From Candidatus Heimdallarchaeota archaeon (lineage in GTDB: Archaea; Asgardarchaeota; Heimdallarchaeia; Heimdallarchaeales; Heimdallarchaeaceae), in the NCBI GenBank assembly GCA_030668875.1, contig DAOVER010000042.1, positions 1 through 24,973 of the forward strand: a DNA stretch of 24,973 nucleotides. Reading direction: 5' to 3'. Within the stretch, counting starts at the first letter, position 1. Each line of letters starts with the position of its first letter. Shown one piece after another: positions 1 through 22,403 of the stretch. The notes below the pieces were generated by a model, which saw nothing but the letters and a program-made list of their open reading frames with translations, was not told the origin of the DNA and did not search any database. The translations under genes were made by a program, and so were the position numbers.

Positions 1-1256
1 GGTCCAAAGGGAGAGATAACAGTTATATTATGCTTTCGTGCTCTGGCTCTTCTGATAGCTCTAATAATTCTATCAGGATGAGATTCTAAATCTGAAATTA
101 CTACAATATAGGCTGCACGTTTTACTCTTTGTAAGAGATAATCAATTGCAACTTCCAAATCCGCTTCTCCTTCAGGTTTAGCATGAGCAAGCGACTCTAG
201 AAACTGAAATAGACGAGATCTCACCGAAGTTATATCAACCCAATTCCTTATCTTATCATCATAGATACATAATCCTACTAGATCCTTTTTCTCGAATGCA
301 AGATGTATAAGAAGTACAGCACTTCGGATAGCATACTCTAGTTTAGTATTTCTAGGTAGACCTGCACCCATGCTTACAGAAGAATCTACTAACACAATCA
401 CACGTATATTCTCTTCAGATTCATATTCTCTAACCATCATCTTTCCTGAACGAGAGAAAGCTTTCCAATCTATAAATTTGAAAGGATCACCTGTCTGGTA
501 TTTTCGTATACCCCAGAAATCTGAACCCATACCTTTTATTTTTGTTCTATGGAAACCAAACAGAACACCTAGTTGTCTTTTCTTGCCAATCATTTCCAAT
601 TTCTTAATATCTTCATAACTTGGATAAACTAAGATTTCTGTCTTTGTAATTATCTCGCCTTCTGTAGCATAGAATCCCATTCGATCTCTTATAATAACTT
701 TAGTAGGACCTATCTCAAAAACACCTCTTATTGGGATTCTAACGACATATCCATAAGTTACTGTCTGTCTTGGATTCAGTTGCGTAACGATAAAATTTTC
801 ACCTAGAATTAAATCGAAAACTTCTGGAATTGCGTCATAAATCTCAACAGTTGGTAATTGATTTACGGATTTATTCCTAGCAGTCACCTCTATGTATACA
901 TAATCTCCTGCGAAAGCCTTGGGCTTTGAAACTTTTCTTGTTATTTCTATTGATTTTGGGTTAGCTCCTAATCTGTAAAATGGTAATCCTAACAGAACTG
1001 AAAAGATTAACATTACTCCACCGATTATGAAAAACCAGATTAGAGTTCCTTCTGTATCAAGATAGAAATGTAAGAAATCCATTATACCTATACCTTGATT
1101 TTCAGCAGGACCTCCAGTTGTTGTGGAGTTTACTTGGGGGTTTACACCAAATGAATCTAACATGGTATTTAGTGATAAGTAGCCCATTAGTGCAAAGCCT
1201 ACGCTAATCATTATGATTCCACCAAAGACTAGCCAACCACCTCGGCGTGTGAACAC
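1..1256 (-). CDS. DUF58 family protein (N-terminal TM segments, Ig-like domain, vWA-like domain), module 1; 3' end runs off the window
   Basis: Not in the ORF track; translated by hand. GTG at 1256 follows AGGTG, and the frame is open to base 1: MFTRRGGWLVFGG...KGMGSDFWGIRKYQTGDPFKFIDWKAFSRSGKMMVREYESEENIRVIVLVDSSVSMG...VVISDLE...ISPFG. Contains the DUF58 signature (R.Y..GD....IDWK..R...VRE) and MIDAS-like DSSVS; lies directly downstream of moxR. Confidence 0.92.
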   Translation of the reverse strand, partial: MFTRRGGWLVFGGIIMISVGFALMGYLSLNTMLDSFGVNPQVNSTTTGGPAENQGIGIMDFLHFYLDTEGTLIWFFIIGGVMLIFSVLLGLPFYRLGANPKSIEITRKVSKPKAFAGDYVYIEVTARNKSVNQLPTVEIYDAIPEVFDLILGENFIVTQLNPRQTVTYGYVVRIPIRGVFEIGPTKVIIRDRMGFYATEGEIITKTEILVYPSYEDIKKLEMIGKKRQLGVLFGFHRTKIKGMGSDFWGIRKYQTGDPFKFIDWKAFSRSGKMMVREYESEENIRVIVLVDSSVSMGAGLPRNTKLEYAIRSAVLLIHLAFEKKDLVGLCIYDDKIRNWVDITSVRSRLFQFLESLAHAKPEGEADLEVAIDYLLQRVKRAAYIVVISDLESHPDRIIRAIRRARARKHNITVISPFG

Positions 1257-1284: not shown

Positions 1285-2298
1285 TTATACTGGAACAGGT
1301 AAGTTTCGAAGTATTTCACTTACAACGATAGTTCCAGTTGTTCCTTCTAATTCTGCTTCTGGTTTCATTTGCAACCTATGGGCACTTGCGACTCTGGCAA
1401 CTCTTTTTACATCATCAGGGATAACGTAATCTCTACCTCTCATTGCTGCAACTGACTTAGATGCATTTAGAAGAGCTATACTACACCTTGGACTTCCGCC
1501 CAATGTTAGTCTAGGATCGGTTCGAGTTGCTATCACCATATTCTTGATATATTCAATAATATCGTCATGAACAAATATCTGGGTCTCAATGCATTCTTTC
1601 ATTTTAGTAATGGTCATAGGAGTTGTTACTCTACGAACTGACTGTTTGATCTGTTTATGCTTTAATAGAATAATCTCCTTTTCTTCTTCAGGAGTAGGTA
1701 AACCTACTAACAGCTTAAACATGAACCTATCGACTTGAGCTTCTGGTAAGGGATAAGTTCCTTCCTGCTCAATTGGATTTTGTGTGGCAATTACTAAAAA
1801 GGGATCATCTAGCTTGAAAGTTGTTCCTTCTACTGTTACCTGTTTTTCTGCCATTGCTTCTAACAATGCTGCTTGAGTTTTTGGTGGGCTTCTGTTAATT
1901 TCATCAGCCAACAAGATATTTGTGAATATTGGTCCTTTTCTCATCTTGAATGTTCCAGCTTTTGGATCATAGATAGTAGTTCCTACTACATCTGATGGCA
2001 AAAGGTCTGGAGTAAATTGCACTCTTTTGAATTCACATCCAAGAGTTAGAGAAAAACTATTAGCCATTACGGTTTTTGCAATTCCCGGAACGCCTTCTAG
2101 TAGACAGTGTCCTCCACCAAGTAGAGCGATAAACATATCTTCTAGAACATCAACTTTTCCGATAATTACACGTCTTAGTTCGTTATATATTTCTTCCCAG
2201 ACTCTCTTTACGTCTTTTGGTGTAACAACTGCTTCTGTTGCTGTCTTTGCTTTCGCTTTTCCTTTTGTTTCACTTGTTTCTTCACTCATTTTTTTCAC
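1285..2298 (-). CDS. moxR: MoxR-family (MoxR-proper) AAA+ ATPase, copy 1; ATG at 2289 is an alternative start
   Basis: Walker A LLEGVPGIAKT, RVQFTPDLLPSD, Walker B ILLADEINRSPPKTQAALLEAM, ATQNPIEQEGTYPLPEAQVDRF and C-terminal GRDYVIPDDVK are all MoxR hallmark motifs. Confidence 0.96.
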   Translation of the reverse strand: MKKMSEETSETKGKAKAKTATEAVVTPKDVKRVWEEIYNELRRVIIGKVDVLEDMFIALLGGGHCLLEGVPGIAKTVMANSFSLTLGCEFKRVQFTPDLLPSDVVGTTIYDPKAGTFKMRKGPIFTNILLADEINRSPPKTQAALLEAMAEKQVTVEGTTFKLDDPFLVIATQNPIEQEGTYPLPEAQVDRFMFKLLVGLPTPEEEKEIILLKHKQIKQSVRRVTTPMTITKMKECIETQIFVHDDIIEYIKNMVIATRTDPRLTLGGSPRCSIALLNASKSVAAMRGRDYVIPDDVKRVARVASAHRLQMKPEAELEGTTGTIVVSEILRNLPVPV

Positions 2299-2320: not shown

Positions 2321-4120
2321 TTATAATCTATCAATTAATCCTTTAATAAATGTCATATATCTCATAAACACTAGTTCAGATATGAATCTTGGCCTAGCAA
2401 GATATGCATCTATTCTTACTAAATTATCATAAAGATCCTTAAATCTCATTGAGGGATATTTTATACTGAAGTATTCTGCTATTTCTTCTGGCGAAGACAT
2501 TGATTGTTTTGACATTTTTCTTAAACCTCTTACCAGTGATCTATACAGAAGACCAACAGCTTCACTATATGCACCTGTGCCAACTATTCGCCGTATCTCT
2601 CTCTCAAAACGTGATTTTCCTTGTTCTCCTCTATATTTTGTCCATAACACTGGGGATAATCGTGTTTTCTTTGGTATTAATGGGTAAGCAATTACTGCAA
2701 GCAAGACAGGTACAAAGGGCGAATAAAGTGGAAACATCGACATTTCAGTAATAAATTTCATTATTGCCATGGAGTATACTGAAGGACTGTAAAACTTTTG
2801 ATGAGCATGACCTTCATCGAAGATAATAGGGATAGCACTTCCTACAGTTACATTCATATCGCTTGCTAAATAGTTGAACAAATTCCTACTAAATATCAAA
2901 TTGTCATTTTCTTCGGTTTTGTCAATCCATTTGTTAATGAAAATGTCAGGATCACCAATCATTACTATTTTGCCTAACCCTATTGGTAAGGTCATAATTG
3001 GAGCAAACATAACATTTCCCCACTCATCCGCATCAGGAAAGGCTTCACCGTCTTTCGCTGATTGGAAATCAGATTCCATCCATGCAGATCTTGAAGTATA
3101 GAACGGAAGGAAGGGGAGAAACATATCTTCTATTTCGAAACCAAATAATTCCAATGAAATAGCTTGTAACGGCATCCAGTCAGTTTTTTCTTCTCCAGTT
3201 ATGGTGTCATTGTGTCTGATAGCCAAACTCAAAACTGTTCCAAACTCCATTTGCAAACCTTTGGATATACCTTCAGTTAGAGGATTTGATGTTTCCATAT
3301 TCCTTAGAATCGGTTGAGCAGGATTTGTTGTATATGTTTCAGCATCCATGAGAACTGATCCATTAAATGCAAAACCTCTCAACATTCCCAACATACTGAA
3401 TATCAGTGTTTCAGGACCACCTGTCTGATTTTCTCCACCAAATCCAAATAAATCTAATAAGGAGGGGATTGTTCCATTACTAAGATCAGCTACATCATCC
3501 CAACTATTAAGTAGTGAGAAGAATGGTTCGAAAATCTGTGCTCCCGTACCATAATCATCTGCTATAACCAAACTACCTCCTCTTGCCAAGAATGTTACTA
3601 AAGATATTGTATCAATAGTACCGTAATTTGCTGCAGGACCAATGATTGCGACAATTCCAGGATCAGAAAGACGATTTAGTACCGCAAGTGAGGACATACC
3701 ATTTGTGATATTATAGCCTTCGCTTTCCAAATTAGATCTTAAGCTGGTTAATCCATCCCAGCCTTCATTATAAATACTGAACTTTGTTCCATATCCAGCT
3801 AAGCCAACCAGTCCCAGTAAGATGGGTACCACAATAATAATAAAAAGTATAAACATTGCAATGGAATATTTTGAGAAGTTTCTAACGAATTCAGACATCA
3901 AGTATATAGTCAGAATCACAATAGTTACCACTATCATCATAGCTCCAATTTCTCGAGAAAATATGTAAGCTACAATTGTTCCTACAATAGCCAAGATTTC
4001 GACCACTATGAATAAAGCTAACTTTTTCGGAGATATTTGTATGTTTATTCTCTTCTTAGCCTCTGGTCTTGATCTTCTTTCTCTTGACTTGTTTCTTTGT
4101 TTGTTGTCTGGCTGGTTCAA
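2321..4120 (-). CDS. DUF4350-type membrane protein: 3 N-terminal TMs, extracellular GATase-like/GIFT-like domain, TM, then a cytoplasmic DUF4129-like tail; TTG start
   Basis: Motifs FSIYNEGWDGLTSL, GGSLVIADDYGTG, GKIVMIGDPDIFIN and IIFDEGH are typical of archaeal DUF4350 proteins. Sits immediately upstream of moxR. TTG at 4120 follows GGTG. Confidence 0.75.
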   Translation of the reverse strand: MNQPDNKQRNKSRERRSRPEAKKRINIQISPKKLALFIVVEILAIVGTIVAYIFSREIGAMMIVVTIVILTIYLMSEFVRNFSKYSIAMFILFIIIVVPILLGLVGLAGYGTKFSIYNEGWDGLTSLRSNLESEGYNITNGMSSLAVLNRLSDPGIVAIIGPAANYGTIDTISLVTFLARGGSLVIADDYGTGAQIFEPFFSLLNSWDDVADLSNGTIPSLLDLFGFGGENQTGGPETLIFSMLGMLRGFAFNGSVLMDAETYTTNPAQPILRNMETSNPLTEGISKGLQMEFGTVLSLAIRHNDTITGEEKTDWMPLQAISLELFGFEIEDMFLPFLPFYTSRSAWMESDFQSAKDGEAFPDADEWGNVMFAPIMTLPIGLGKIVMIGDPDIFINKWIDKTEENDNLIFSRNLFNYLASDMNVTVGSAIPIIFDEGHAHQKFYSPSVYSMAIMKFITEMSMFPLYSPFVPVLLAVIAYPLIPKKTRLSPVLWTKYRGEQGKSRFEREIRRIVGTGAYSEAVGLLYRSLVRGLRKMSKQSMSSPEEIAEYFSIKYPSMRFKDLYDNLVRIDAYLARPRFISELVFMRYMTFIKGLIDRL

Positions 4121-4508
4121 CTAATTCTACACCTTGTTCTCTAATTCCACGGAAACATATATCTAATCTCTGGATGGCCTCTTGATAGTCATCATATGTT
4201 ATTTCAGTGTCAGTATATCTAGCAATTTCAAAGGATGTAAGATACTCGTCCATAACTTCTGTGGAGATATTAGCTCTATTAGCAACTGAAAAACCGAATT
4301 CTCTTCCAGTTTGATAAATTGCACGGGACATACTAAGTAACCCATGAGCAATGTTATTTAATCCTCCAAAGGAAGCTATAACGGCACCTTTGTAATCTTG
4401 TCTTTGCTCAAATATCCTTACATCTGCCATGACAGATGTAAACATCTGGTTTAATGATTTAACTTGTTTTCTTTTCTTGAAGAACCCAAAGATACCTCTA
4501 TGACTCAA
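4056..4508 (-). CDS. Stand-alone soluble DUF4129-like protein (150 aa); TTG start
   Basis: YKGAVIASF...QTGREF...FEIARY...IT..D aligns by eye with the DUF4129 tail of the upstream gene. GGTGA lies 8 nt before the TTG. No TM segment. Confidence 0.75.
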   Translation of the reverse strand: MSHRGIFGFFKKRKQVKSLNQMFTSVMADVRIFEQRQDYKGAVIASFGGLNNIAHGLLSMSRAIYQTGREFGFSVANRANISTEVMDEYLTSFEIARYTDTEITYDDYQEAIQRLDICFRGIREQGVELVEPARQQTKKQVKRKKIKTRG

Positions 4509-7500
4509 TTTTCATTTCACCTACTTCTATTTTATCTACTATTTTTAATAATGCACGTAATCCGGAATTGAAGTCATTTTCAGTTATTTCTTCATATCCA
4601 TATCGTGCTTTTTCGAAATATGAGAGAAGTGTATACATTATCTCTCGTTCAATTTTGCCTTTTTCAGCAAGCAATCGCGAAAACTCCCAAGGAGTTTGAC
4701 TTTTATATCTTGGTAAGTCGAAGAATTCTCGACCGATACCCTCTACCACTGTCCAGGTTTTTATTAGCCCCTCTTGGTATCTTCCTTCCAATCCATCTCT
4801 TTTGATATCTTCTATTATCTCTTTTAGATAGTCACGTAATCGGCGTCTGAAGGTTTGTTTCTTTGCATAAGATTGCAGAGAATGCCTATTAAACCACAGG
4901 AAAAGAATTGCAACAACTGCTACAATACCTCCTATAACACCTCCAATTATAGCACCGATACTACCTGTTATTCCACCAGGTGGTGGAGCGACAGGACTAT
5001 CATTAATAACAACCAAATTCACTGAAGTTGTGGATCTGGAATTTTCAACAGCATCTACTGCTTCAATAAAATATTCCAACAAAAAATTACCATAAAAAGG
5101 TAATTCTATATTTGAGAGATTAAATGTTGCCTCAAATACATCAGAGATTCCAACGCGGATCATAGTGATATTATAATCCACTTCATTATAGGTAATATGT
5201 AATATTACCCCTGATACTGAAGTGAGGACATCTGTCACTGTTGCAGAGAATTCAAGTACCGTATCAGGGGTTATATATGATACATTTCCCGCTACAGCGA
5301 CATTACTAATTGTGGGTGCATCACTATCAACAGCTTGCACGGTCTGCATTGATCCTAAGAGAGGATTTGATGCGGGTAATGCCGTATCATAGGCAATATA
5401 ATACCACTCATACTCGTAATTATATTGAAGCGTAAGCTGATAGAACCATTGATTGGTACTAGTAATATTAGTCATTAAAGCTACAATATAATCTGTTTGA
5501 TTCACAAGTGTAACTAAATTGTGACTATTAACATGAAGTGTGACATTTTTCATACCGCTCCAAACAATACTATCGTTGATGAATACAGTAATGTTAATGT
5601 ATGGGTTTGTGGGGTTACCAGAGGGTATAATAGTCGGTACTTGCTCCTCAAATGGTTCAATAAAATCACCTAGTTGGAAGGTATTGTAACCTGTATATGT
5701 ATTATTCCAATAATAATCTGCATCATAGTATAGAAGGGCGTTAGTTTGTTTTGCACCAAATTCATCTAAACCATGTCCTGCATAATCTTTCACTTCGACA
5801 TAGAATCTGACATAATATTGTGATTCTGCTACAGTTGCATTAATCATGCCTCTATACTGATCCCCTCCAACATGCCATAGCGTAAAGGATTGCCACCCGC
5901 CTACTGATGTATTACCTAGTGGCTCTAAATAATTAAAGAAAAACTCTACTGATCTAATTCCTGTGTCAATATCAATAACATAAATATCGAATTGAATGAT
6001 GAAATATGGATCGTGAATTCCAGGATCGTAAGGATCAGGAGTCACAACCTCACCTGTAACGGCTGGTCTGTTGTTATCAGGTCCATAAATATTAATTGTG
6101 CGAGTTATTGAGGTAGCTGGGGCATAATCACCACCAGAAGCTACTAACGACAGACCTGGATAAGCATGAGTGTCCTGAAGTATTGACAGAAAATTAAGAG
6201 CAGTGAAATCAACCCAATTCTTCGTTGAAGTAATTAGGAGATTGGATGTTTCAACATCACCACCATTTGTTAATGTAATGAAAATATTTACCTTTTCTGG
6301 TAATCTTAACCATTGATCAGTTACCATCAAAGTATAATTGTGAGTTGCATCAAGAGCTCCCCAGAAAGTACTATTAAATACAGTAGATGTTGTTCCATCT
6401 AAAATATTTGCTCCACTAGGATCAGTTAGAGTTAGTATAAGTGCAAAATAAGTATTGAATACAGAATTATTTAAAGCTCCAGCAACAACTGCATAACGAT
6501 AATCTGCTCCAGAAACAGCTAGAGCTGTAACTGTTATTGTTTTTGTTTGTGTCTCATTAGTGGAATAATCTGGAATGACAGTATCAACGTGTCTTGACCC
6601 TGTTGCAACAGAGTATGGTTGAACAATTGAATCAGGGAAGTTCAGTTGGAAACTAGATGATTGAGCAGGATTGCCATACTCATCATAAAGAGCAACATCA
6701 TAGCCAATATTATTGCCTGTTGTGTAATATCTTACGGCATCATCTAGATCTAAATCAATTCTTGTAATATTAACTGCTAATTGTCCCTCTAAACTATCAT
6801 GAGTTAAAGTTGATCCAACAAATTCATCCCCGTTAGGATCTATTAAGAAATTAAAAATAAGCACATCTGTTACATCAGATATGTTGGTACCATCAAAATA
6901 AAATGTATCTTGAATCTCAGCTGTAGGATTAGATGTTACATAATCGTTAGTATAAATAGTTCCCTCTCCAGCTCCAGAAATCGTCAGTCTGACAGTTGAA
7001 TCAGGTTCTAAGCCCAATTGTGAGGTTAGATTCGCATAAACTGTAATTGATGTACCTCCAATGATTTCAGTTGGAGTGTTAATTTTACTTGGTCCCACTA
7101 TAAAGTAGGCATCAACAACCACTTGGTTCTCTGTAGCATCTACAACAGTTTCATAAATCAATCTATCATTTTGAATATCGCTGGTTCCTTCGTCTGTAAA
7201 GAAATTATACCCAAGTTGATCAATATCATAATACGCTTCATAAGTGACATCATCTACCAAAACAGGGGCAGTATTTGAATAAAGATCTTGATTGGAGGAG
7301 AAAGTTCTGTTATTATCAAAATGTATACCGTCAAGTAACCAACCGACCTTAAGACTGTATTCTGTTCCAGTAGAATCGATAACTGTATCATTATCAAATA
7401 AAATTCGAGTATTAAATGAATAAGAAGCAGACGGATTTGTGACATCAACAGTTACATCTACTTTAATTTGTCCAAAATAGAAAACATTTACATCTCCTGG

Positions 7501-8166
7501 ACTCCCCGCCCCTCTCCCCATGCCTGGGTTACCATAGAACCATGCAAGAAGAGTAATTTCCCCAATCTTAGAGAAGGGGTCTATAGAAAGAGCGGAAGTA
7601 GTTAATTGGATAGTAAACTCGCCTTGAGCATTAGTTACAGCACTTCCAACTTGATATTGAGGTGTTTCATATGTTACAGGACTACTGATATATTGACTTT
7701 CAGTAACATTGTAGAAAAGCCAAACAGTTTCTCCGCCCCAATAATCTCCAACAACAATGCCTTGCAAAACGCCCTCTACATCAATGAGAGTGTCTCTAAG
7801 AATATATTCATTGGCTGTTGGAGATGTTATACTTTTCATTATCGTTGGCATTGTTTGAATTTCCGTGTCAACACCTTGAACTGTCAACTCACTATTTTTA
7901 GGAGAATAAATCACTTTATTTTCAGATTCGATTTCCGGTAGCACAGAATCTTCTACCAAATCTGGAAAATACTCATATCTAGTTGGCGCATATGTATTGT
8001 CAACTATGTTTTGTGACCCTTGCCCAAATATATATGTTGGAGAACTAATTTCGTCGTTTTGCTCTTTTATTATACTCTGAGTTTGTACAAAAGCAACTGT
8101 AGACAATTGTATAATGAGTATTAGAAAGAAAATCATTCCTGTTAGTTTTGTTCTAATACTCTTCAT
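4498..8166 (-). CDS. Large single-pass surface protein (1222 aa): signal/anchor, ~1050-aa acidic beta-rich ectodomain with Ig-like repeats, TM, C-terminal DUF4129 domain
   Basis: Hydrophobic N-terminus; about 22 NxS/T sequons counted by hand; TM GAIIGGVIGGIVAVVAILFLWF; tail QTPWEF...YFEKARYG. ATGA overlap with the upstream stop. Confidence 0.85.
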   Translation of the reverse strand: MKSIRTKLTGMIFFLILIIQLSTVAFVQTQSIIKEQNDEISSPTYIFGQGSQNIVDNTYAPTRYEYFPDLVEDSVLPEIESENKVIYSPKNSELTVQGVDTEIQTMPTIMKSITSPTANEYILRDTLIDVEGVLQGIVVGDYWGGETVWLFYNVTESQYISSPVTYETPQYQVGSAVTNAQGEFTIQLTTSALSIDPFSKIGEITLLAWFYGNPGMGRGAGSPGDVNVFYFGQIKVDVTVDVTNPSASYSFNTRILFDNDTVIDSTGTEYSLKVGWLLDGIHFDNNRTFSSNQDLYSNTAPVLVDDVTYEAYYDIDQLGYNFFTDEGTSDIQNDRLIYETVVDATENQVVVDAYFIVGPSKINTPTEIIGGTSITVYANLTSQLGLEPDSTVRLTISGAGEGTIYTNDYVTSNPTAEIQDTFYFDGTNISDVTDVLIFNFLIDPNGDEFVGSTLTHDSLEGQLAVNITRIDLDLDDAVRYYTTGNNIGYDVALYDEYGNPAQSSSFQLNFPDSIVQPYSVATGSRHVDTVIPDYSTNETQTKTITVTALAVSGADYRYAVVAGALNNSVFNTYFALILTLTDPSGANILDGTTSTVFNSTFWGALDATHNYTLMVTDQWLRLPEKVNIFITLTNGGDVETSNLLITSTKNWVDFTALNFLSILQDTHAYPGLSLVASGGDYAPATSITRTINIYGPDNNRPAVTGEVVTPDPYDPGIHDPYFIIQFDIYVIDIDTGIRSVEFFFNYLEPLGNTSVGGWQSFTLWHVGGDQYRGMINATVAESQYYVRFYVEVKDYAGHGLDEFGAKQTNALLYYDADYYWNNTYTGYNTFQLGDFIEPFEEQVPTIIPSGNPTNPYINITVFINDSIVWSGMKNVTLHVNSHNLVTLVNQTDYIVALMTNITSTNQWFYQLTLQYNYEYEWYYIAYDTALPASNPLLGSMQTVQAVDSDAPTISNVAVAGNVSYITPDTVLEFSATVTDVLTSVSGVILHITYNEVDYNITMIRVGISDVFEATFNLSNIELPFYGNFLLEYFIEAVDAVENSRSTTSVNLVVINDSPVAPPPGGITGSIGAIIGGVIGGIVAVVAILFLWFNRHSLQSYAKKQTFRRRLRDYLKEIIEDIKRDGLEGRYQEGLIKTWTVVEGIGREFFDLPRYKSQTPWEFSRLLAEKGKIEREIMYTLLSYFEKARYGYEEITENDFNSGLRALLKIVDKIEVGEMKIES
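5000..6078 (-). repeat. Three tandem degenerate Ig-like protein repeats (starting near residues 697, 834 and 947 of the 1222-aa protein)
   Basis: Recurring pattern D..P......V.D..(S/T)G(I/V)..V.(F/L)...Y/W...A.D: DNNRPAV...VIDIDTGIRSVEFF...EVKDYAGH; DFIEP...INDSIVWSGMKNVTLH...IAYDTA; DSDAPTI...VTDVLTSVSGVILH...EAVDAVEN. Similarity is at protein level only. Confidence 0.6.
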
Positions 8167-11100
8167 TGATAATAGCTCTCCTTAATTGTAGAAAAATCTT
8201 GGTTACTCGTTTGAATAGTAATGTAAGCTATCGGCAGTAAGAATATTGATAATGACAATATATTCTCAATATTAATCATACTAACTACTGAGAAACTAAT
8301 ACTTCCATGTATAGAATCGCTGTAAATCTGATTCATAGCTACAGCAAAGCTTGCTGGAGGAGTTGAAATGAAAACAGATGCAGATGCATTCCATCTATCT
8401 AAATAGAACGTTAAGAAGACAAATGATCCCGCCCCATGGTTTCTAGCATCAACTACTATTGTAGTATTGACAAAACCACTTACATCTGTCACTCCATTAT
8501 ACAGTATTTTGTTATATGGAATAGAGGTGTTTAAAGTAGATGCAAGCTCAGATTTGTAGGTTGCTACATCCGTAACACCTGTATAAGCTTGATAATCTGA
8601 TTCTTGTATGAACCATACTTCTATTGCTTCTCCAGCTATTGCAGTTGGAGCACCTAAAGGAGGTTGCATATAAAGATAGAAATCAAAGTCTTCCCACAAG
8701 AAGAATCCATCTACACCTACATCCAGAACCGTATCATTTAACGTTGTTTCTGTTCGTAGATAATCGATTAGTAACATAACTGAAAATGTATAATTCTGAC
8801 CATAATTTGCCACTAAGAAATATGTGGTATCTTCAGGTAGGGCAAAATAATCTGTTATTCCATCATTTGAATATACCGTTGATGTTCCAGCACCATTGGT
8901 TAGGCCATCACCAATTTTAGTAACATCTTCAGGACCAATTATACCTAATTGTAACTGTTGAAGCTCATCAGACGTTAAAACATAATAGGACACATATCTT
9001 CCAGCTAAAGGCGTTATAAACCCGGGTTCTGCGTAAAGGGTTGTGCTTAAGGAATATGTGAACCCTCTTTGAGCAATATAATAATTATAAAATGTTCCTG
9101 GATCCTCAGGACTTGGTAAGTACTGCGTCGTTGCATTCATCGAAACCGTCGTCAAATATCCCTCAGGAAGAATAACGAAACCCGTTGCATTCAAAGAAGT
9201 GAAACTAATGAAAGCGAAAACAATATACGTCGTACTATCTGGATCTGATGGATTATAAAGTGGATATGCCGTGCTGTTGAAAGTAGGATATACCTCAGCT
9301 CTTCCGATTCCATTCGTTGCTTCATTGCCAAGATCATCAGCAACTGCAAGGAGTTGAGTTGGATTTGTTTGATAGGTTTGATAATCTGCAGCAGTTACTG
9401 CCTTGAAATTAACTATCGCTCCCACTGCAGGGGACCCTTCACTTGAAACATCTGCCCTTACTGTATATTGTAAATTATCAAGAATATACACTTCATCGCT
9501 TCCCACAACTTGTGTTGGAAGTGCGTCATAAGACGCTGGAAGTCCATGCATTGACACATCTACATCATAAGAAGTATAGAGTGTATTTTCACAATAAACC
9601 AAATCGACACCACTAGGATAAGGCCCAATTTGGTATTGTCCCCAACGATGTACTGGGTCAGCACCACCTTCATCTATTGGAAGGAGAGCTTCTACCCAGC
9701 CATAGAGGTTAGCAAAAGCTAATGTTCTATTATTTGGGTCACCACCATTTGGGCTACCTATAGCAAATCCAAAAACAGGTCTTGCAGGAATTCCATTCAA
9801 ACGCATAGTCATAATGGCTAAAGAAAGAAAAGCAGAGATTGAGAAGTCTGTTCTTTCATAAAGAAGTTGTGCTCTATCCCTACCCCCGTTATCAGTTTGG
9901 TCAGCAGTGGGCACCCCATATTCAAGTAGAATTTTGTCAATTATGTAAGCAGCACGTTCATGGAACGTATGGCCTAAATCAGTTGAGTCATTGTTGATTC
10001 CTTCTGCGAAATATATAACTCCAGGAGAAGTTGTCTCATAATTTGTGGGTATTTGGAGAAATCTTTCAACAGCTGGATCAGTAGCATATCCAGGAACATA
10101 ATAATCTGTACAATCATTAATAATAGTCTGAGTATCATCCTGAACAAAATAAGTTGTATAATCGTAAGTACCAACAAAACCTAATATTTCAGCTGAAGAT
10201 TGAAGCAGTAGTTGATCTCTTAATGTATAAACGATATCTGTTGAACCTTCAACTGCTACATTAGTACCATTTTCATCAAGCAGGTAATCATCCCAATGTG
10301 AGATGGAACTACCTTCATCAGTATCATATACACTAAGATGAGGATAATGATATGAGCTCCAAGTTGTAAGTAATGGACTGGTAACTGTTGTTGTGGCCGA
10401 ATAAGCTAACTGCTTGATATCCATACCAATAGCTGTAGGATCTGGTGATCCATAATCTGATCCATCTTGGAGAGCATTAGTTACAGCGTCGTTTGAGGTA
10501 AACTCCCAAGACGTAGAATCATAATAATCGTGAACCTCCCATCTATAAAGGAAGTTACCTAAATCACCATCCAAACCATCCGTGAAAACTTCCGCTACTT
10601 CTTGATTGCCTAATGAACTATTAAAATCTAGAGCATCCAAGAGATCTAGTAAACCATCTATATAGAAGGGTGCAGATCCTTGGAAATTAGCATTAAACCA
10701 ATCAGGATCAATAATTTGTTCATCAATAACTCCAGGAGGTAAGTCACGATATTTGTCTAACATGCTCAAATAAGGACCCATGAATGACATTAAGAGGATA
10801 TAAATTGTGAAACTTGTAAAAAGAATCCTCCAGATATTATGTCTAGAATGCCATTTAAACAACCCAAATGGCCACGATATTATTGGGAGGAGTATGTACA
10901 AAAAGATTGATGCAATAATTCGCAAAATGCTAGGTTTGAATTCAATTCTATATGTTTCAAAAGAGATTAACAACAAGAATACGTTTATTCCAATTGCTAC
11001 ATAAAACAAAGCTAAGATTACAAAGGAAGGCATACCCGGAATCTGCAAATCACCAAAAAGGAAGGTCATTACGACTGTAGTTACTAGTGATATACCAAAA

Positions 11101-11270
11101 ATAATTGAGAATATGATATTTATTGGTTTAATCTTTTTTTCTGCCAACAATTCAGCGGGTAACCAATCTTGTTTTTTCTTAAGCTTTCTCTGCTTAGGAA
11201 CGACAGCGGCTCGAGTTTTCAGTTTACTACCGCTTTTTAATTTTTTAACTTTTTTTGGTTTATCAGACAT
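8163..11270 (-). CDS. Membrane-anchored transglutaminase-like (TgpA/DUF3488-like) protein, 1035 aa, predicted catalytically inactive, with a long C-terminal beta-rich extension
   Basis: Lys-rich N-terminus and 3-4 TMs. LYRWEVHDYYDSTSW resembles TgpA YWR..VYD.FDG..W. Core MRLNGIPARPVFGF...YGWVEA matches the transglutaminase-like consensus R..GIPAR.V.G...HAWVE, but without the Cys, His and Asp. Confidence 0.8.
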   Translation of the reverse strand: MSDKPKKVKKLKSGSKLKTRAAVVPKQRKLKKKQDWLPAELLAEKKIKPINIIFSIIFGISLVTTVVMTFLFGDLQIPGMPSFVILALFYVAIGINVFLLLISFETYRIEFKPSILRIIASIFLYILLPIISWPFGLFKWHSRHNIWRILFTSFTIYILLMSFMGPYLSMLDKYRDLPPGVIDEQIIDPDWFNANFQGSAPFYIDGLLDLLDALDFNSSLGNQEVAEVFTDGLDGDLGNFLYRWEVHDYYDSTSWEFTSNDAVTNALQDGSDYGSPDPTAIGMDIKQLAYSATTTVTSPLLTTWSSYHYPHLSVYDTDEGSSISHWDDYLLDENGTNVAVEGSTDIVYTLRDQLLLQSSAEILGFVGTYDYTTYFVQDDTQTIINDCTDYYVPGYATDPAVERFLQIPTNYETTSPGVIYFAEGINNDSTDLGHTFHERAAYIIDKILLEYGVPTADQTDNGGRDRAQLLYERTDFSISAFLSLAIMTMRLNGIPARPVFGFAIGSPNGGDPNNRTLAFANLYGWVEALLPIDEGGADPVHRWGQYQIGPYPSGVDLVYCENTLYTSYDVDVSMHGLPASYDALPTQVVGSDEVYILDNLQYTVRADVSSEGSPAVGAIVNFKAVTAADYQTYQTNPTQLLAVADDLGNEATNGIGRAEVYPTFNSTAYPLYNPSDPDSTTYIVFAFISFTSLNATGFVILPEGYLTTVSMNATTQYLPSPEDPGTFYNYYIAQRGFTYSLSTTLYAEPGFITPLAGRYVSYYVLTSDELQQLQLGIIGPEDVTKIGDGLTNGAGTSTVYSNDGITDYFALPEDTTYFLVANYGQNYTFSVMLLIDYLRTETTLNDTVLDVGVDGFFLWEDFDFYLYMQPPLGAPTAIAGEAIEVWFIQESDYQAYTGVTDVATYKSELASTLNTSIPYNKILYNGVTDVSGFVNTTIVVDARNHGAGSFVFLTFYLDRWNASASVFISTPPASFAVAMNQIYSDSIHGSISFSVVSMINIENILSLSIFLLPIAYITIQTSNQDFSTIKESYYQ

Positions 11271-11592: not shown

Positions 11593-12297
11593 GTGATCAT
11601 TATCCAAGTTAAATTAATTTCTTACCCTGAAGAAGCAGAATTAATAGCAAAAATGGCCGGATTAATATGTTATTCTGGTGAGAAGGTTTTCGAGGAAATA
11701 AAGGAAAAGGCCTCTCTAAAGTCTGATGAATATCTTGAAACAATAATAAAATCTGGACACTTATCGATAGTAGAACACAATGTGTTTGTTTTCTATGTAT
11801 CTGGAATAAGTAGAATAACTTCACATCAATTGGTAAGAAAGAGAATAGCTAGTTTTTCACAGCAATCCCAGAGATATGTTAATGCAGAAAATTTTGAATA
11901 TATTATTCCAGACGAAATCAATAAATCAACTTTTGTAGAAAAATACAAAGAAATTGTAAATCAAAGCCAAGAACTTTATCAAGAAATGGTTAATAATGGC
12001 GTTCCAAAAGAAGATGCGAGATACATTTTACCTAACGCAACTTCCACCCAAATGATAGTTTCAATGAATGGTCATTCACTTATCGATTTCTTAGTAAGAA
12101 GGATTTGCCAAAGATCCCAGAGTGAGATTCGTGAATTAGCAGAGAGGATGCTTGAGGAGGTAAAAAAGGTTGCTCCAGCAATCTTCAAAAATCTTGGTGC
12201 ATTTTGCGATTTCTATGGTTATTGTCCTGAAAACAGTCATTCGTGTGGAAGAGCGCCTACAATAGATGAATTAAAAGAAAAAGCTTCTCTTAAGTAG
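11593..12297 (+). CDS. thyX: Flavin-dependent thymidylate synthase ThyX, divergent at FAD-binding positions; true start may be ATC at 11602
   Basis: GHLSIVEH, SRITSHQLVRKRIASFSQQSQRY, EDARYILPNA, R..QRSQSEIR and a Cys-rich C-terminus (C.....CPE....CG) as in archaeal/clostridial ThyX. Confidence 0.93.
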   Translation: MIIIQVKLISYPEEAELIAKMAGLICYSGEKVFEEIKEKASLKSDEYLETIIKSGHLSIVEHNVFVFYVSGISRITSHQLVRKRIASFSQQSQRYVNAENFEYIIPDEINKSTFVEKYKEIVNQSQELYQEMVNNGVPKEDARYILPNATSTQMIVSMNGHSLIDFLVRRICQRSQSEIRELAERMLEEVKKVAPAIFKNLGAFCDFYGYCPENSHSCGRAPTIDELKEKASLK

Positions 12298-18539: not shown

Positions 18540-20222
18540 CTATATAACTATCAATCTAACTCCTTTTGAAGTTTTTAATAGAAAGTAAACACTTGCAGAA
18601 GCTAATGTAAGTGTGCATAACATAACTATGATTCCATAGACCATCAATGAGATAGTGATTATCAAAAGTACTGAAAAAATTATCATATACAATGAGGTCA
18701 CAATTAGTGATATTGCAACAATTGAAAGAAGGTTTATGGAACTTATAATAGATTTTACTCTGTGTTGTTTATATCTGTACCATACCACGGTTGCGAATAA
18801 TGCAATTACAATAGAAAGTAAGAATAAAGAATAACCTAGGAAAGACACTGTATCTTCAATAGTAGTAAACGTAAAAATAAAGCTGATAAATATCCCAATA
18901 GCCAGAAATCGAGTAAATCCAACTGCAATTGAGGAGAAAAATGGTGGGGAGGAGGAACTCATCTTTTCGAATAATGCATCTACTTCTGTTCCACAGGACC
19001 AACAAACACGTGCAAATTGCGGTAGTACTTGATTGCAGTTTCGGCACTGGATTTTAGGGAAAGACCAACAATTCAGACAAAATTCCCCATTATATACTGG
19101 TGTTCGACACTGTGAACATACCATCAAATTAGTTTTTTCATCATAAAGAGGTTCTGTGTTCTTCATTTTCTCAAGATCTTCCTTTAAAGGGGGTGAGTGA
19201 GAAGAAATATCTGGACATAGCTTCTCAATGTGTTGAGTAAAACATTTAGGACAAAAACTAGGAACAGAGAGCATTATCACTAAAACAAATATCCCAAACA
19301 AAACATAAGATAAGTTTCCAAGAAGAGAAGAGATCAGCAATATCGTTTCCTCACCTGTGCTAAAATTCCATAAACTATGGAAAGAAATGCTCAAAATTAG
19401 AAACAAACCGCAAATTACTATTCTCGTATATTTTGGAAGTTTATTGCGATATAGGAATGCTAACCCCAAACCTGTAGCAGCTAACATAGTTGTTACGGTG
19501 TGTAAAGGGTAGATGCTTCGAAGAGGAACTAAGAAATCAACAGCGGTTTCAGGGTTAGAAGAATATAAAAGAAATTGTTCAAATAAATCAAACCATGCAC
19601 CAAAAAATCCTCCAAACATAACAAAAATTCTGAATGAAGGTGTAAGTCTTGTATGAATTGATCGTTTAGCATTGAGATTTAATCTAGCATAGTTTCCAAA
19701 CAAGATGATTATGGGGAAAATCTTTGCTATTTCTTCAACTATAGGAATAATAAGTAAGAAGAAGATATTATGTATGATCTGATATACCACAGGAAATGAG
19801 TCTGACGACGAGAAAAATCCAGAAGTAAAGGTCACCAAAATAAAAAATTCCTTTTCTATAATTACAGCAAAATAAGGGGACAGAACCCCCACCACTAAGA
19901 GGAGAGAAAAGAGTTTCTTGATTAGCTTGGTTTCAAGTTGAGTGCTTGTTATACTAAATAGGAAATAAATACATGTTACCCAGAGAATGAAAAATACTGT
20001 AATTATGAGAATTATAACAATAGGAAAATATACAGAATTTTCGTATCTAGTAACAATGGTAACTAGGAAATAAGCGAGAACCGTTAAAAAGACTAAAGAT
20101 ACAACTTTAGCTAGTGTTGAGAAACTCAAGATGCGCTTGTGTATTGGTTCAATGATTAATAATTCTTCAACTGGAGTATCTGCTTCTTTTTTCTTAGCTG
20201 AAACATTAACCATTGTTCCCAA
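18540..20222 (-). CDS. prsW: PrsW-family (M82) intramembrane metalloprotease with internal zinc-ribbon domains and extra C-terminal TMs
   Basis: All four PrsW motifs in order: IVEEIAK, FDLFE, PLHTV, FHSLWN. Then CPKC..H..C and four CxxC pairs (CSQC, CLNC, CRNC, CWSC), followed by about 4 more TMs. Confidence 0.85.
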   Translation of the reverse strand: MGTMVNVSAKKKEADTPVEELLIIEPIHKRILSFSTLAKVVSLVFLTVLAYFLVTIVTRYENSVYFPIVIILIITVFFILWVTCIYFLFSITSTQLETKLIKKLFSLLLVVGVLSPYFAVIIEKEFFILVTFTSGFFSSSDSFPVVYQIIHNIFFLLIIPIVEEIAKIFPIIILFGNYARLNLNAKRSIHTRLTPSFRIFVMFGGFFGAWFDLFEQFLLYSSNPETAVDFLVPLRSIYPLHTVTTMLAATGLGLAFLYRNKLPKYTRIVICGLFLILSISFHSLWNFSTGEETILLISSLLGNLSYVLFGIFVLVIMLSVPSFCPKCFTQHIEKLCPDISSHSPPLKEDLEKMKNTEPLYDEKTNLMVCSQCRTPVYNGEFCLNCWSFPKIQCRNCNQVLPQFARVCWSCGTEVDALFEKMSSSSPPFFSSIAVGFTRFLAIGIFISFIFTFTTIEDTVSFLGYSLFLLSIVIALFATVVWYRYKQHRVKSIISSINLLSIVAISLIVTSLYMIIFSVLLIITISLMVYGIIVMLCTLTLASASVYFLLKTSKGVRLIVI

Positions 20223-21653: not shown

Positions 21654-22403
21654 CTATTGAAATAATCTACGACCTTCTTCAAATTGAAGTTCATCAATAT
21701 CCGAAACAATCGATCGTTGTTTTAGTCCTTTTACTATAACAACGGGTATCATTTCTCCAGCTTGACCCATAACTAATTCAGCTGCTGAGCACACTTCATC
21801 AGCCAAAGCCACAACTGTTGATTTAAGCTTGTAACCAAAAATATCTTCTCTTCCCTTTGCATCATCGATAACTGAAAAATTGTAGGAGCCAATCGCTACA
21901 TTGATTGCACCGCGCCTTAAGGTTCTACCATGAGTATCGGCTATTAACAAAGATAGATTTTTTTGAAAAGTTTCAGATAGTTTTTTACCGATGAAAGTTG
22001 CTGATTTACTAGAATCAATTGGAAGAGTCACAGCACAGTTAGGTCGGGAATTTGATTGATCTACTGCAGAGTTAGCACAAATCCATCCTTGTTTGTTTTT
22101 TGTTATAATTATGTTATTTTCTACTTTTAGAAGTTTTGAAGCTTCTGACATTATAAGCTCAACAAGAGAGGGGTCTTTACCTGTTCTTCTTGCAATCAAT
22201 TCAGCAATAGGTGAAGGGTTAAGGGATGGCAGATAAAATTCCATTCCTTCGGATCTAGAGATTATAGTATGAGCAATTACTATTATGTCACCATCTGAGA
22301 TGGAAATGGTTGTTTTCCGAATGGAATCAATAATAAGGTCAGCTATATCATCGCCTTCCTTAATTATAGGTAATTCCAATGGAATGATCTCAACATGGTG
22401 CAT
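21654..22403 (-). CDS. cofE: Coenzyme F420-0:L-glutamate ligase
   Basis: LPIIKEGDDIA, GDIIVIAHTIISRSEG, CANSAVDQSN, IADTHGRTLRRG..VAIG, G.EDIFGY.L..T..A.ADE..SAAELVMG; GGTGA + 5 nt + ATG. Confidence 0.95.
   Translation of the reverse strand: MHHVEIIPLELPIIKEGDDIADLIIDSIRKTTISISDGDIIVIAHTIISRSEGMEFYLPSLNPSPIAELIARRTGKDPSLVELIMSEASKLLKVENNIIITKNKQGWICANSAVDQSNSRPNCAVTLPIDSSKSATFIGKKLSETFQKNLSLLIADTHGRTLRRGAINVAIGSYNFSVIDDAKGREDIFGYKLKSTVVALADEVCSAAELVMGQAGEMIPVVIVKGLKQRSIVSDIDELQFEEGRRLFQ

Follow-up and report, generated by a model that had tools for sequence, protein, structure and literature searches.

What is a transglutaminase-like protein for once all three of its catalytic residues have been replaced? 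The question is raised by a gene in a stretch of 24,973 nucleotides (hereafter the window; ~35% guanine plus cytosine) comprising positions 1 to 24,973 of contig DAOVER010000042.1, from an assembly of a Candidatus Heimdallarchaeota archaeon (GCA_030668875.1). The gene encodes P0001, a TgpA-like membrane protein of 1035 amino acids (aa) whose named homologues all belong to the Heimdallarchaeaceae/Heimdallarchaeota, an Asgard group, and it lies beside genes for a MoxR-type ATPase and a DUF58 protein. The association of MoxR, DUF58 and TgpA genes is widespread in bacteria and archaea and includes a gene that is essential in Pseudomonas aeruginosa, yet to our knowledge its function is not understood. 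The evidence set out below strongly supports the status of P0001 as a pseudoenzyme and bears on what the surrounding module might do without transglutaminase chemistry.

A sequence-only reading of the window had aligned P0001 by eye to the transglutaminase consensus, placing Ile478, Tyr523 and Gln547 at the positions of the catalytic Cys, His and Asp and noting that the only two Cys residues of the protein lie elsewhere. The three codons can be read directly from the DNA (Table 1), and the two Cys are C387 and C560. We used hhalign to compare a core profile of 39 full-length P0001 homologues (39–88% identity) with one built from 11 canonical Cys-His-Asp domains. The two matched with a probability of 98.4% (E 6.8e-15) and, as in the alignment by eye, I478 fell opposite the Cys, Y523 opposite the HAWVE His and Q547 opposite the FDPTP Asp. 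A weak match of the family profile to the periplasmic domain of TgpA (6g49; E 0.73) gives the same pairing at the Cys and His positions; weak profile matches of this kind to PDB sequences served for register, not as proof of homology, and a single-sequence phmmer search of aa 380–620 against PDB sequences found no match. The Pfam model Transglut_core (PF01841) scores 22.3 bits on P0001 (aa 432–528), just below its cut-off of 23, and 26 bits, above the cut-off, at P0001 in a six-frame search of the genome. In the HMMER alignment, the Cys of some canonical sequences falls one column away from 478. This doubt is settled, however, by the hhalign result and by the spacing between the nucleophile position and the invariant Arg of R..GIPAR, which is a gap-free 12 residues in the canonical sequences and P0001 alike. 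A shift of one residue would restore no Cys, since position 479 is Ser or Thr.

An AlphaFold model of the core (aa 395–600) has a mean predicted local distance difference test (pLDDT) score of 75, with values of ~90 over the helix that begins at residue 478. Residue 478 is the first residue of this helix (84–97 in model numbering), and the strands that carry residues 523 and 547 are neighbours, a placement that, as modelled, corresponds to the canonical geometry of the transglutaminase fold. The top Foldseek match of the core model is P. aeruginosa TgpA (6g49; E 1.1e-3, probability 1.00), and almost all of the remaining matches are transglutaminases and related cysteine proteases, among them the inactive protein 4.2. 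Superposition on TgpA, proposed earlier as a check, gave a VIA Z score of 8.2 with a root-mean-square deviation of 2.9 Å over 134 residues; Z values of 8–10 were obtained against other bacterial transglutaminase-like proteins, with a range of 8.2–9.7 across TglA, BDI_1141 and TgpA. The profile pairing and the canonical geometry of the model together make the match far better than chance. P0001 displays both the sequence-profile similarity and the papain-like alpha/beta core of the transglutaminase-like superfamily and lacks the Cys-His-Asp triad: it belongs to the superfamily by structure and not as an enzyme. Canonical triad chemistry is almost certainly absent from the protein, and its core is predicted from these substitutions to be incapable of thiol-based transamidation, deamidation or proteolysis.

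Is the loss recent, or has it been kept? In all 39 homologues, residue 478 is A, L, F, I or V, residue 523 is Y or F and residue 547 is Q. The window's own family has 29 other genomes, and a search across the phylum (399 genomes, with a strong match defined as E 1e-52 or lower) found a strong match in 23 of them, one copy each, with all five genera represented. All 24 loci that were read from these genomes show the triad pattern of the P0001 family, with Ser at 478 in one genus. The reading frame of P0001 has no internal stop and is intact in the 39 homologues, and comparison with an orthologue of 86% identity gives a ratio of non-synonymous to synonymous substitution rates (dN/dS) of 0.16 over the gene; a pseudogene or decay is rejected on these grounds, in line with the sequence-only reading. 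Over aa 455–565 the ratio is 0.039, the lowest of any segment. The codon for Gln547 is CAA 20 times and CAG five times among 25 family loci, and Tyr523 is encoded by TAT or TAC; such synonymous variation indicates that the replacement residues themselves are under selection. Two further transglutaminase-like genes in the window's genome have an intact Cys, showing that the loss is specific to P0001. Loss of the catalytic residues from a domain that stays under purifying selection is what distinguishes a pseudoenzyme, and the P0001 family shows both, with the replacement of the entire triad common to every member examined. The earlier proposal of a pseudoenzyme has in this respect held up well. 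Judged from these comparisons, the loss of the triad is old and maintained, and an ancient family-wide replacement under strong purifying selection implies that the core is used for something other than catalysis.

Relatives in other Asgard lineages place this loss in a wider series. In a maximum-likelihood tree of the domain, the P0001 family (x-Tyr/Phe-Gln, x standing in place of Cys) forms a clade with support 97 together with a small pair of x-Phe/Ser-Gln sequences and a third group of ~1000–1130 aa proteins from two sister families of the same order, which are mostly x-His-Asn. The nucleophile is missing in every sequence read of this order-level clade, and the P0001 family, with all three residues gone, would represent its end point. 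Among the Asgard families beyond this clade, some have Ala-His-Asp, Ser-His-Asp or Val-His-Asp, one has an intact Cys-His-Asp triad and three are dead in other ways. Ser stands exactly at the nucleophile position, with the His kept, at eight loci from other Asgard families (L039, L040, L043–L045 and L054–L056); the Asp is visible in two of the eight, the profile alignment having ended before the Asp position in the rest. These Ser-bearing relatives may be still-active Ser-His-Asp variants of the transglutaminase fold.

The core is embedded in a much larger membrane protein (Table 1). P0001 opens with a basic stretch, 18 of the residues in aa 1–49 (11124–11270) being Lys or Arg, in which the motif KLKT.PAVVPK is near-invariant. 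The third of the hydrophobic segments that follow (aa 113–138, 10857–10934) is located within a basic conserved cytoplasmic loop (K.HTRH..KR) and, were it to span the membrane, would flip the topology. It is absent in 13 of the 39 relatives, and two sister-tier proteins have three hydrophobic segments only, which argues for a core of three transmembrane (TM) segments and, with it, for a basic N-terminal tail inside the cell and a large domain outside. Directly past the last N-terminal TM segment comes the most conserved single stretch of the protein, the acidic helix GSAPFYIDGLLDLLDALD (aa 198–215, 10626–10679). Foldseek matches of the stalk (E ~1e-9) comprise alpha-2-macroglobulin/complement macroglobulin (MG) domains, adhesins and one S-layer protein, and P0001 has 12 N-glycosylation sequons. 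No match to P0001 was found in a scan of NCBIfam, and a Pfam scan of the protein found no DUF4129. In a search of sequencing runs, those containing full-length P0001 are marine sediment metagenomes, which may be the source of the assembly, and no RNA run is among the matches listed; neither result has any bearing on expression.

The P0001 gene heads a conserved cluster that represents a variant of both the TgpA and the arCOG01314 systems. It continues with a gene for a giant DUF4129 protein (P0002), a 150 aa open reading frame (ORF) and a DUF4350 gene, and then come the genes for a MoxR ATPase and a DUF58/vWA protein. The ATG of P0002 overlaps the stop codon of P0001 (ATGA), the adjacency of the two genes recurs at loci L004, L038 and L005, and the DUF4129 domain occupies aa 1150–1205 of P0002. 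In three TgpA-type relatives (P0120, P0103 and P0067), a transglutaminase core and DUF4129 are found in one chain. A reading of P0001 and P0002 as a simple split TgpA had to be softened, however, as P0002 has a giant ectodomain of its own; it seems closer to a second surface protein with a DUF4129 anchor than to the missing half of a TgpA. A complex prediction for the TM parts of P0001 with the TM–DUF4129 tail of P0002 scored 0.00 without controls and counts neither way. The window holds a second MoxR module beyond thyX, and two other genomes (L004 and L038), one of them the closed chromosome of Ca. Heimdallarchaeum aukensis, show synteny over the whole of this two-module layout.

Table 1. Features of P0001 and of the genes in its cluster, with positions in the window
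Feature	Position	Strand	Basis and remarks
P0001, TgpA-like membrane protein with dead transglutaminase-fold core	8163..11270	minus	ORF list, translation; 1035 aa
P0001 aa 1–170, conserved Lys/Arg-rich tail, then four hydrophobic segments	10761..11270	minus	Hydropathy scans, alignment
P0001 aa 395–600, transglutaminase-like (papain-like) core	9471..10088	minus	Pfam, hhalign, AlphaFold, Foldseek, VIA
Ile478 at catalytic Cys position	9837..9839	minus	Codon ATC; A/L/F/I/V in family, Ser in one genus
Tyr523 at catalytic His position	9702..9704	minus	Codon TAT; Tyr or Phe family-wide
Gln547 at catalytic Asp position	9630..9632	minus	Codon CAA; invariant Gln in family
Cys560 (motif YCENTLY), only widely conserved Cys of P0001	9591..9593	minus	Alignment
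P0001 aa 585–985, stalk of about four beta-sandwich domains, immunoglobulin (Ig)-like or macroglobulin-like	8316..9518	minus	AlphaFold (pLDDT 85), Foldseek
P0001 aa ~1000–1022, C-terminal hydrophobic anchor	8205..8273	minus	Hydropathy scan, alignment; sequence poorly conserved
P0002, 1222 aa: signal peptide, giant ectodomain, one TM segment, cytoplasmic DUF4129	4498..8166	minus	Pfam, gene order
150 aa ORF, no Pfam match	4056..4508	minus	Same slot in orthologous clusters, 145–165 aa
DUF4350 (arCOG01314-type) protein, 599 aa	2321..4120	minus	Pfam E 3e-11
MoxR-type AAA+ ATPase (AAA_3 + AAA_lid_2)	1285..2298	minus	Pfam E 2.5e-65
DUF58/vWA protein, runs off window end	3..1256	minus	Pfam DUF58 E 1.6e-35, VWA_2 E 1e-10

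Several other genes of the window and its genome may be mentioned here. Between the two MoxR modules, and on the strand opposite to theirs, lies thyX (11593–12297, plus strand), in the same place as at L004 and L038, and the ~20-kb two-module block that includes it is conserved across genera. The first gene of the second module (18540–20222, minus strand) has DZR as its sole Pfam match, its L004 orthologue being annotated as a PrsW-protease (PF13367). A gene for F420-0:gamma-glutamyl ligase (21654–22403) is found ~10 kb from P0001, and a gene for the same enzyme adjoins that of a 646 aa Ala-His-Asp transglutaminase-like protein in a record labelled Bathyarchaeia (L037:10001–12683); this is probably a coincidence. 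A DDE transposase ORF (PF01609; 23952–24806, minus strand) is located close to the end of the window. On contig C16 of the same genome (L002), an ORF of the actin family (316 aa; 5–955, plus strand) adjoins a small secreted transglutaminase-like protein of 264 aa whose Cys is intact (1498–2292, minus strand).

How does P0001 compare with known systems? The best structural match of its core, TgpA (PA2873), is an inner-membrane protein with a periplasmic transglutaminase domain that is active in vitro and has an intact triad, and its gene is co-transcribed with PA2875 and PA2874 (PMC3507681). TgpA and P0001 share a plan of N-terminal TM bundle, extracytoplasmic transglutaminase-fold domain and further TM segment, whereas none of the three triad residues of TgpA is found in P0001. 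We take PA2875 and PA2874 to be a MoxR ATPase and a DUF58 protein, a pair that would have its counterpart in the MoxR and DUF58 genes of the P0001 cluster. Pfam finds no TgpA_N domain (PF11992) in P0001, and when the N-terminal 400 aa are compared with TgpA_N regions by hhalign, the probability is 0.17% and a short YRW..Y..W motif alone aligns; an N-terminal hydrophobic bundle of 3–4 segments is present. Among the features that typify TgpA-type proteins, then, P0001 has the MoxR and DUF58 neighbourhood and lacks both TgpA_N and a DUF4129 in the same chain. In contrast to TgpA, the DUF4129 is carried by the next gene and a ~400 aa Ig-like stalk is inserted, whilst the cluster also contains the DUF4350 gene and the 150 aa ORF with no Pfam match. 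P0001 is a variant of the TgpA plan with a dead core, an added stalk and the DUF4129 on a neighbour, and its ectodomain is predicted to have no transglutaminase activity.

Two further gene clusters resemble that of P0001. The neighbourhoods of arCOG01314 (DUF4350) have been predicted to encode an archaeal secretion or membrane-remodelling system and contain predicted S-layer and Ig-like proteins (Makarova, Galperin and Koonin 2015, PMC5898192). This system and the P0001 cluster both combine a DUF4350 membrane protein and a MoxR-type AAA+ ATPase with a vWA protein and large Ig-like surface proteins, and in the window all four occur in one neighbourhood. The published description (PMC5898192) lists no transglutaminase-like component, and the word does not occur in it, whereas the P0001 cluster is headed by a dead transglutaminase-fold protein. 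The PFNA cluster of bifidobacteria (pkb2, fn3, aaa-atp and duf58, plus tgm; PMC8430577), in which gene order is fixed, likewise combines a large surface protein and a MoxR-type ATPase with DUF58 and a transglutaminase-like protein of the membrane. It differs in being bacterial, in including a Ser/Thr kinase and in having no DUF4350 among its listed genes, and its Tgm is presumed to be a cysteine protease and is not described as inactive (PMC8430577).

Proteins that have kept the fold and lost the activity are already known from eukaryotes. Fission yeast Cyk3p has lost the active site of its transglutaminase fold, yet the domain is still needed for function (PMC3386208), and erythrocyte protein 4.2 (EPB42), one of the structural matches of the P0001 core, and FBXO21 are likewise inactive transglutaminase-fold proteins whose domain is still needed (PMC10318531). 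All three are eukaryotic cytoplasmic or cytoskeletal proteins, whereas P0001 is a prokaryotic membrane and surface protein, encoded in a MoxR operon, with all three residues replaced; we found no specific sequence relationship between P0001 and EPB42, Cyk3p or FBXO21. A literature search that did not cover the 1999 superfamily paper of Makarova, Aravind and Koonin found no description of a dead transglutaminase head for Asgard archaea.

Taken together, these results are best explained, with a probability that we put at roughly 0.7, if P0001 is a surface pseudoenzyme that serves as a non-catalytic head or scaffold with its DUF4129 partner and the MoxR machine. In this reading P0001 is a membrane-anchored surface protein built on the TgpA plan: a basic cytoplasmic tail leads into a small TM bundle, and the extracellular N-lobe and core are followed by a four-Ig stalk and a C-terminal anchor. 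A partner or ligand would be held by the cleft, which is preserved, and by the invariant residues specific to the family that surround it (DN.G.DRA, WGQFQ.GPY and Y.EN); the protein would be the non-catalytic head or scaffold subunit, partnered with the translationally coupled giant DUF4129 protein; and the cytoplasmic tails would connect it to the DUF4350, MoxR and DUF58/vWA machine encoded downstream. The sequence-only reading had suggested a subunit of this kind in a module that may hold surface proteins instead of cross-linking them, which is a reasonable proposal. On the narrower question of whether P0001 serves the MoxR surface module itself as a subunit for binding or scaffolding, we infer that it does, although the balance tips only a little in that direction. 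Several points weigh on the other side. The evidence for the role and for the pairing with DUF4129 comes down to gene order, the overlap of start and stop codons and fusion in relatives, and both should be read as suggestions. The x-His-Asn sister tier keeps the first four genes of the cluster and has no annotated MoxR or DUF58 gene within 10 kb downstream, so that gene order may suggest a tighter link to MoxR than exists. Finally, C560 is specific to exactly the family that has lost the His, a possible sign of a relocated function.

A relocated function would mean that P0001 is still an enzyme, with a site formed by Cys560 (together with Glu561 or Glu527) or by Ser477 or Ser479, the residues that flank the old nucleophile position. 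C560 is found in 37 of the 39 homologues and is Gly in the sister tiers, most family members have Ser on both sides of position 478, and the other Asgard families in which Ser occupies the nucleophile position and His and Asp are kept suggest that a Ser variant of the fold may exist. Three family members, however, have Gly or Ala in place of C560, which lies in a segment modelled with moderate confidence (pLDDT 49–66), and the candidate Ser residues also vary across the 39 homologues, S477 being Ala in five and Thr in one and S479 being Thr in ten and Pro in one. C387 is variable in the same set and no His column of the ectodomain is conserved in it; with Tyr or Phe and Gln at the old His and Asp positions, there is no general base on hand. 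An alternative nucleophile had been named at the outset as a finding that would overturn a pseudoenzyme, yet the ectodomain has no invariant Cys, Ser or His able to take the place of the triad, and no competent substitute active site is apparent there. We consider a relocated site improbable and think it very likely that P0001 carries out no catalysis of any kind. That the loss is an artefact of a misaligned register or a decaying gene can be almost wholly discounted: the sub-threshold Pfam score and the one-column shift of Cys in some HMMER alignments might be read in this way, but the gap-free spacing to the invariant Arg, the agreement of hhalign and the TgpA alignment on the register and the Ser or Thr at 479 all argue against it.

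Two further explanations accept that the core is dead and differ on what it does. In one, the head has no specific ligand and P0001 is a structural coat or S-layer-associated surface protein that uses the old fold as a stable building block. Four Ig-like or MG-like stalk domains with matches to adhesins and to an S-layer protein, the 12 N-glycosylation sequons and the predicted S-layer and Ig-like proteins of the published arCOG01314 neighbourhoods (PMC5898192) would all suit such a protein. It is the core, however, and not the stalk that is most constrained (dN/dS 0.039 against 0.144), and the core contains family-specific invariant polar residues (N461, D465, R466, D475, Q545, Q547, N562 and T563), a pattern that fits an interaction site better than a spacer. 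A purely structural role is in our view unlikely. The other explanation, which is speculative and distinctly doubtful, casts the dead head as the part that recognises the ligand in an Asgard receptor or adhesion machine of the cell surface, in which binding in the cleft would be signalled across the membrane to the MoxR/vWA module. The signal would travel through the TM bundle and conserved basic tail of P0001, along with the DUF4129 tails of its neighbours. If this were true, the MoxR-DUF58-TgpA association would at root be a non-catalytic mechano- or signal-coupling system, and the series Cys-His-Asp, Ser/Ala-His-Asp, x-His-Asn and x-Tyr-Gln would record a shift from enzyme to receptor.

What, then, does a surface pseudoenzyme imply for the module around it? 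Taken alone, P0001 adds another pseudoenzyme to those already known for this fold. The related lineages add a natural series of intermediates, in which Cys would have been lost first, Asp then changed to Asn and His lost thereafter, and this series should be useful for dissecting the change from enzyme to non-enzyme. As a complete module is retained under strong selection in a family without catalytic residues, the module works without transglutaminase chemistry, at least in this lineage, and the P0001 family narrows the hypotheses for the entire MoxR system towards roles in binding, scaffolding or coupling.

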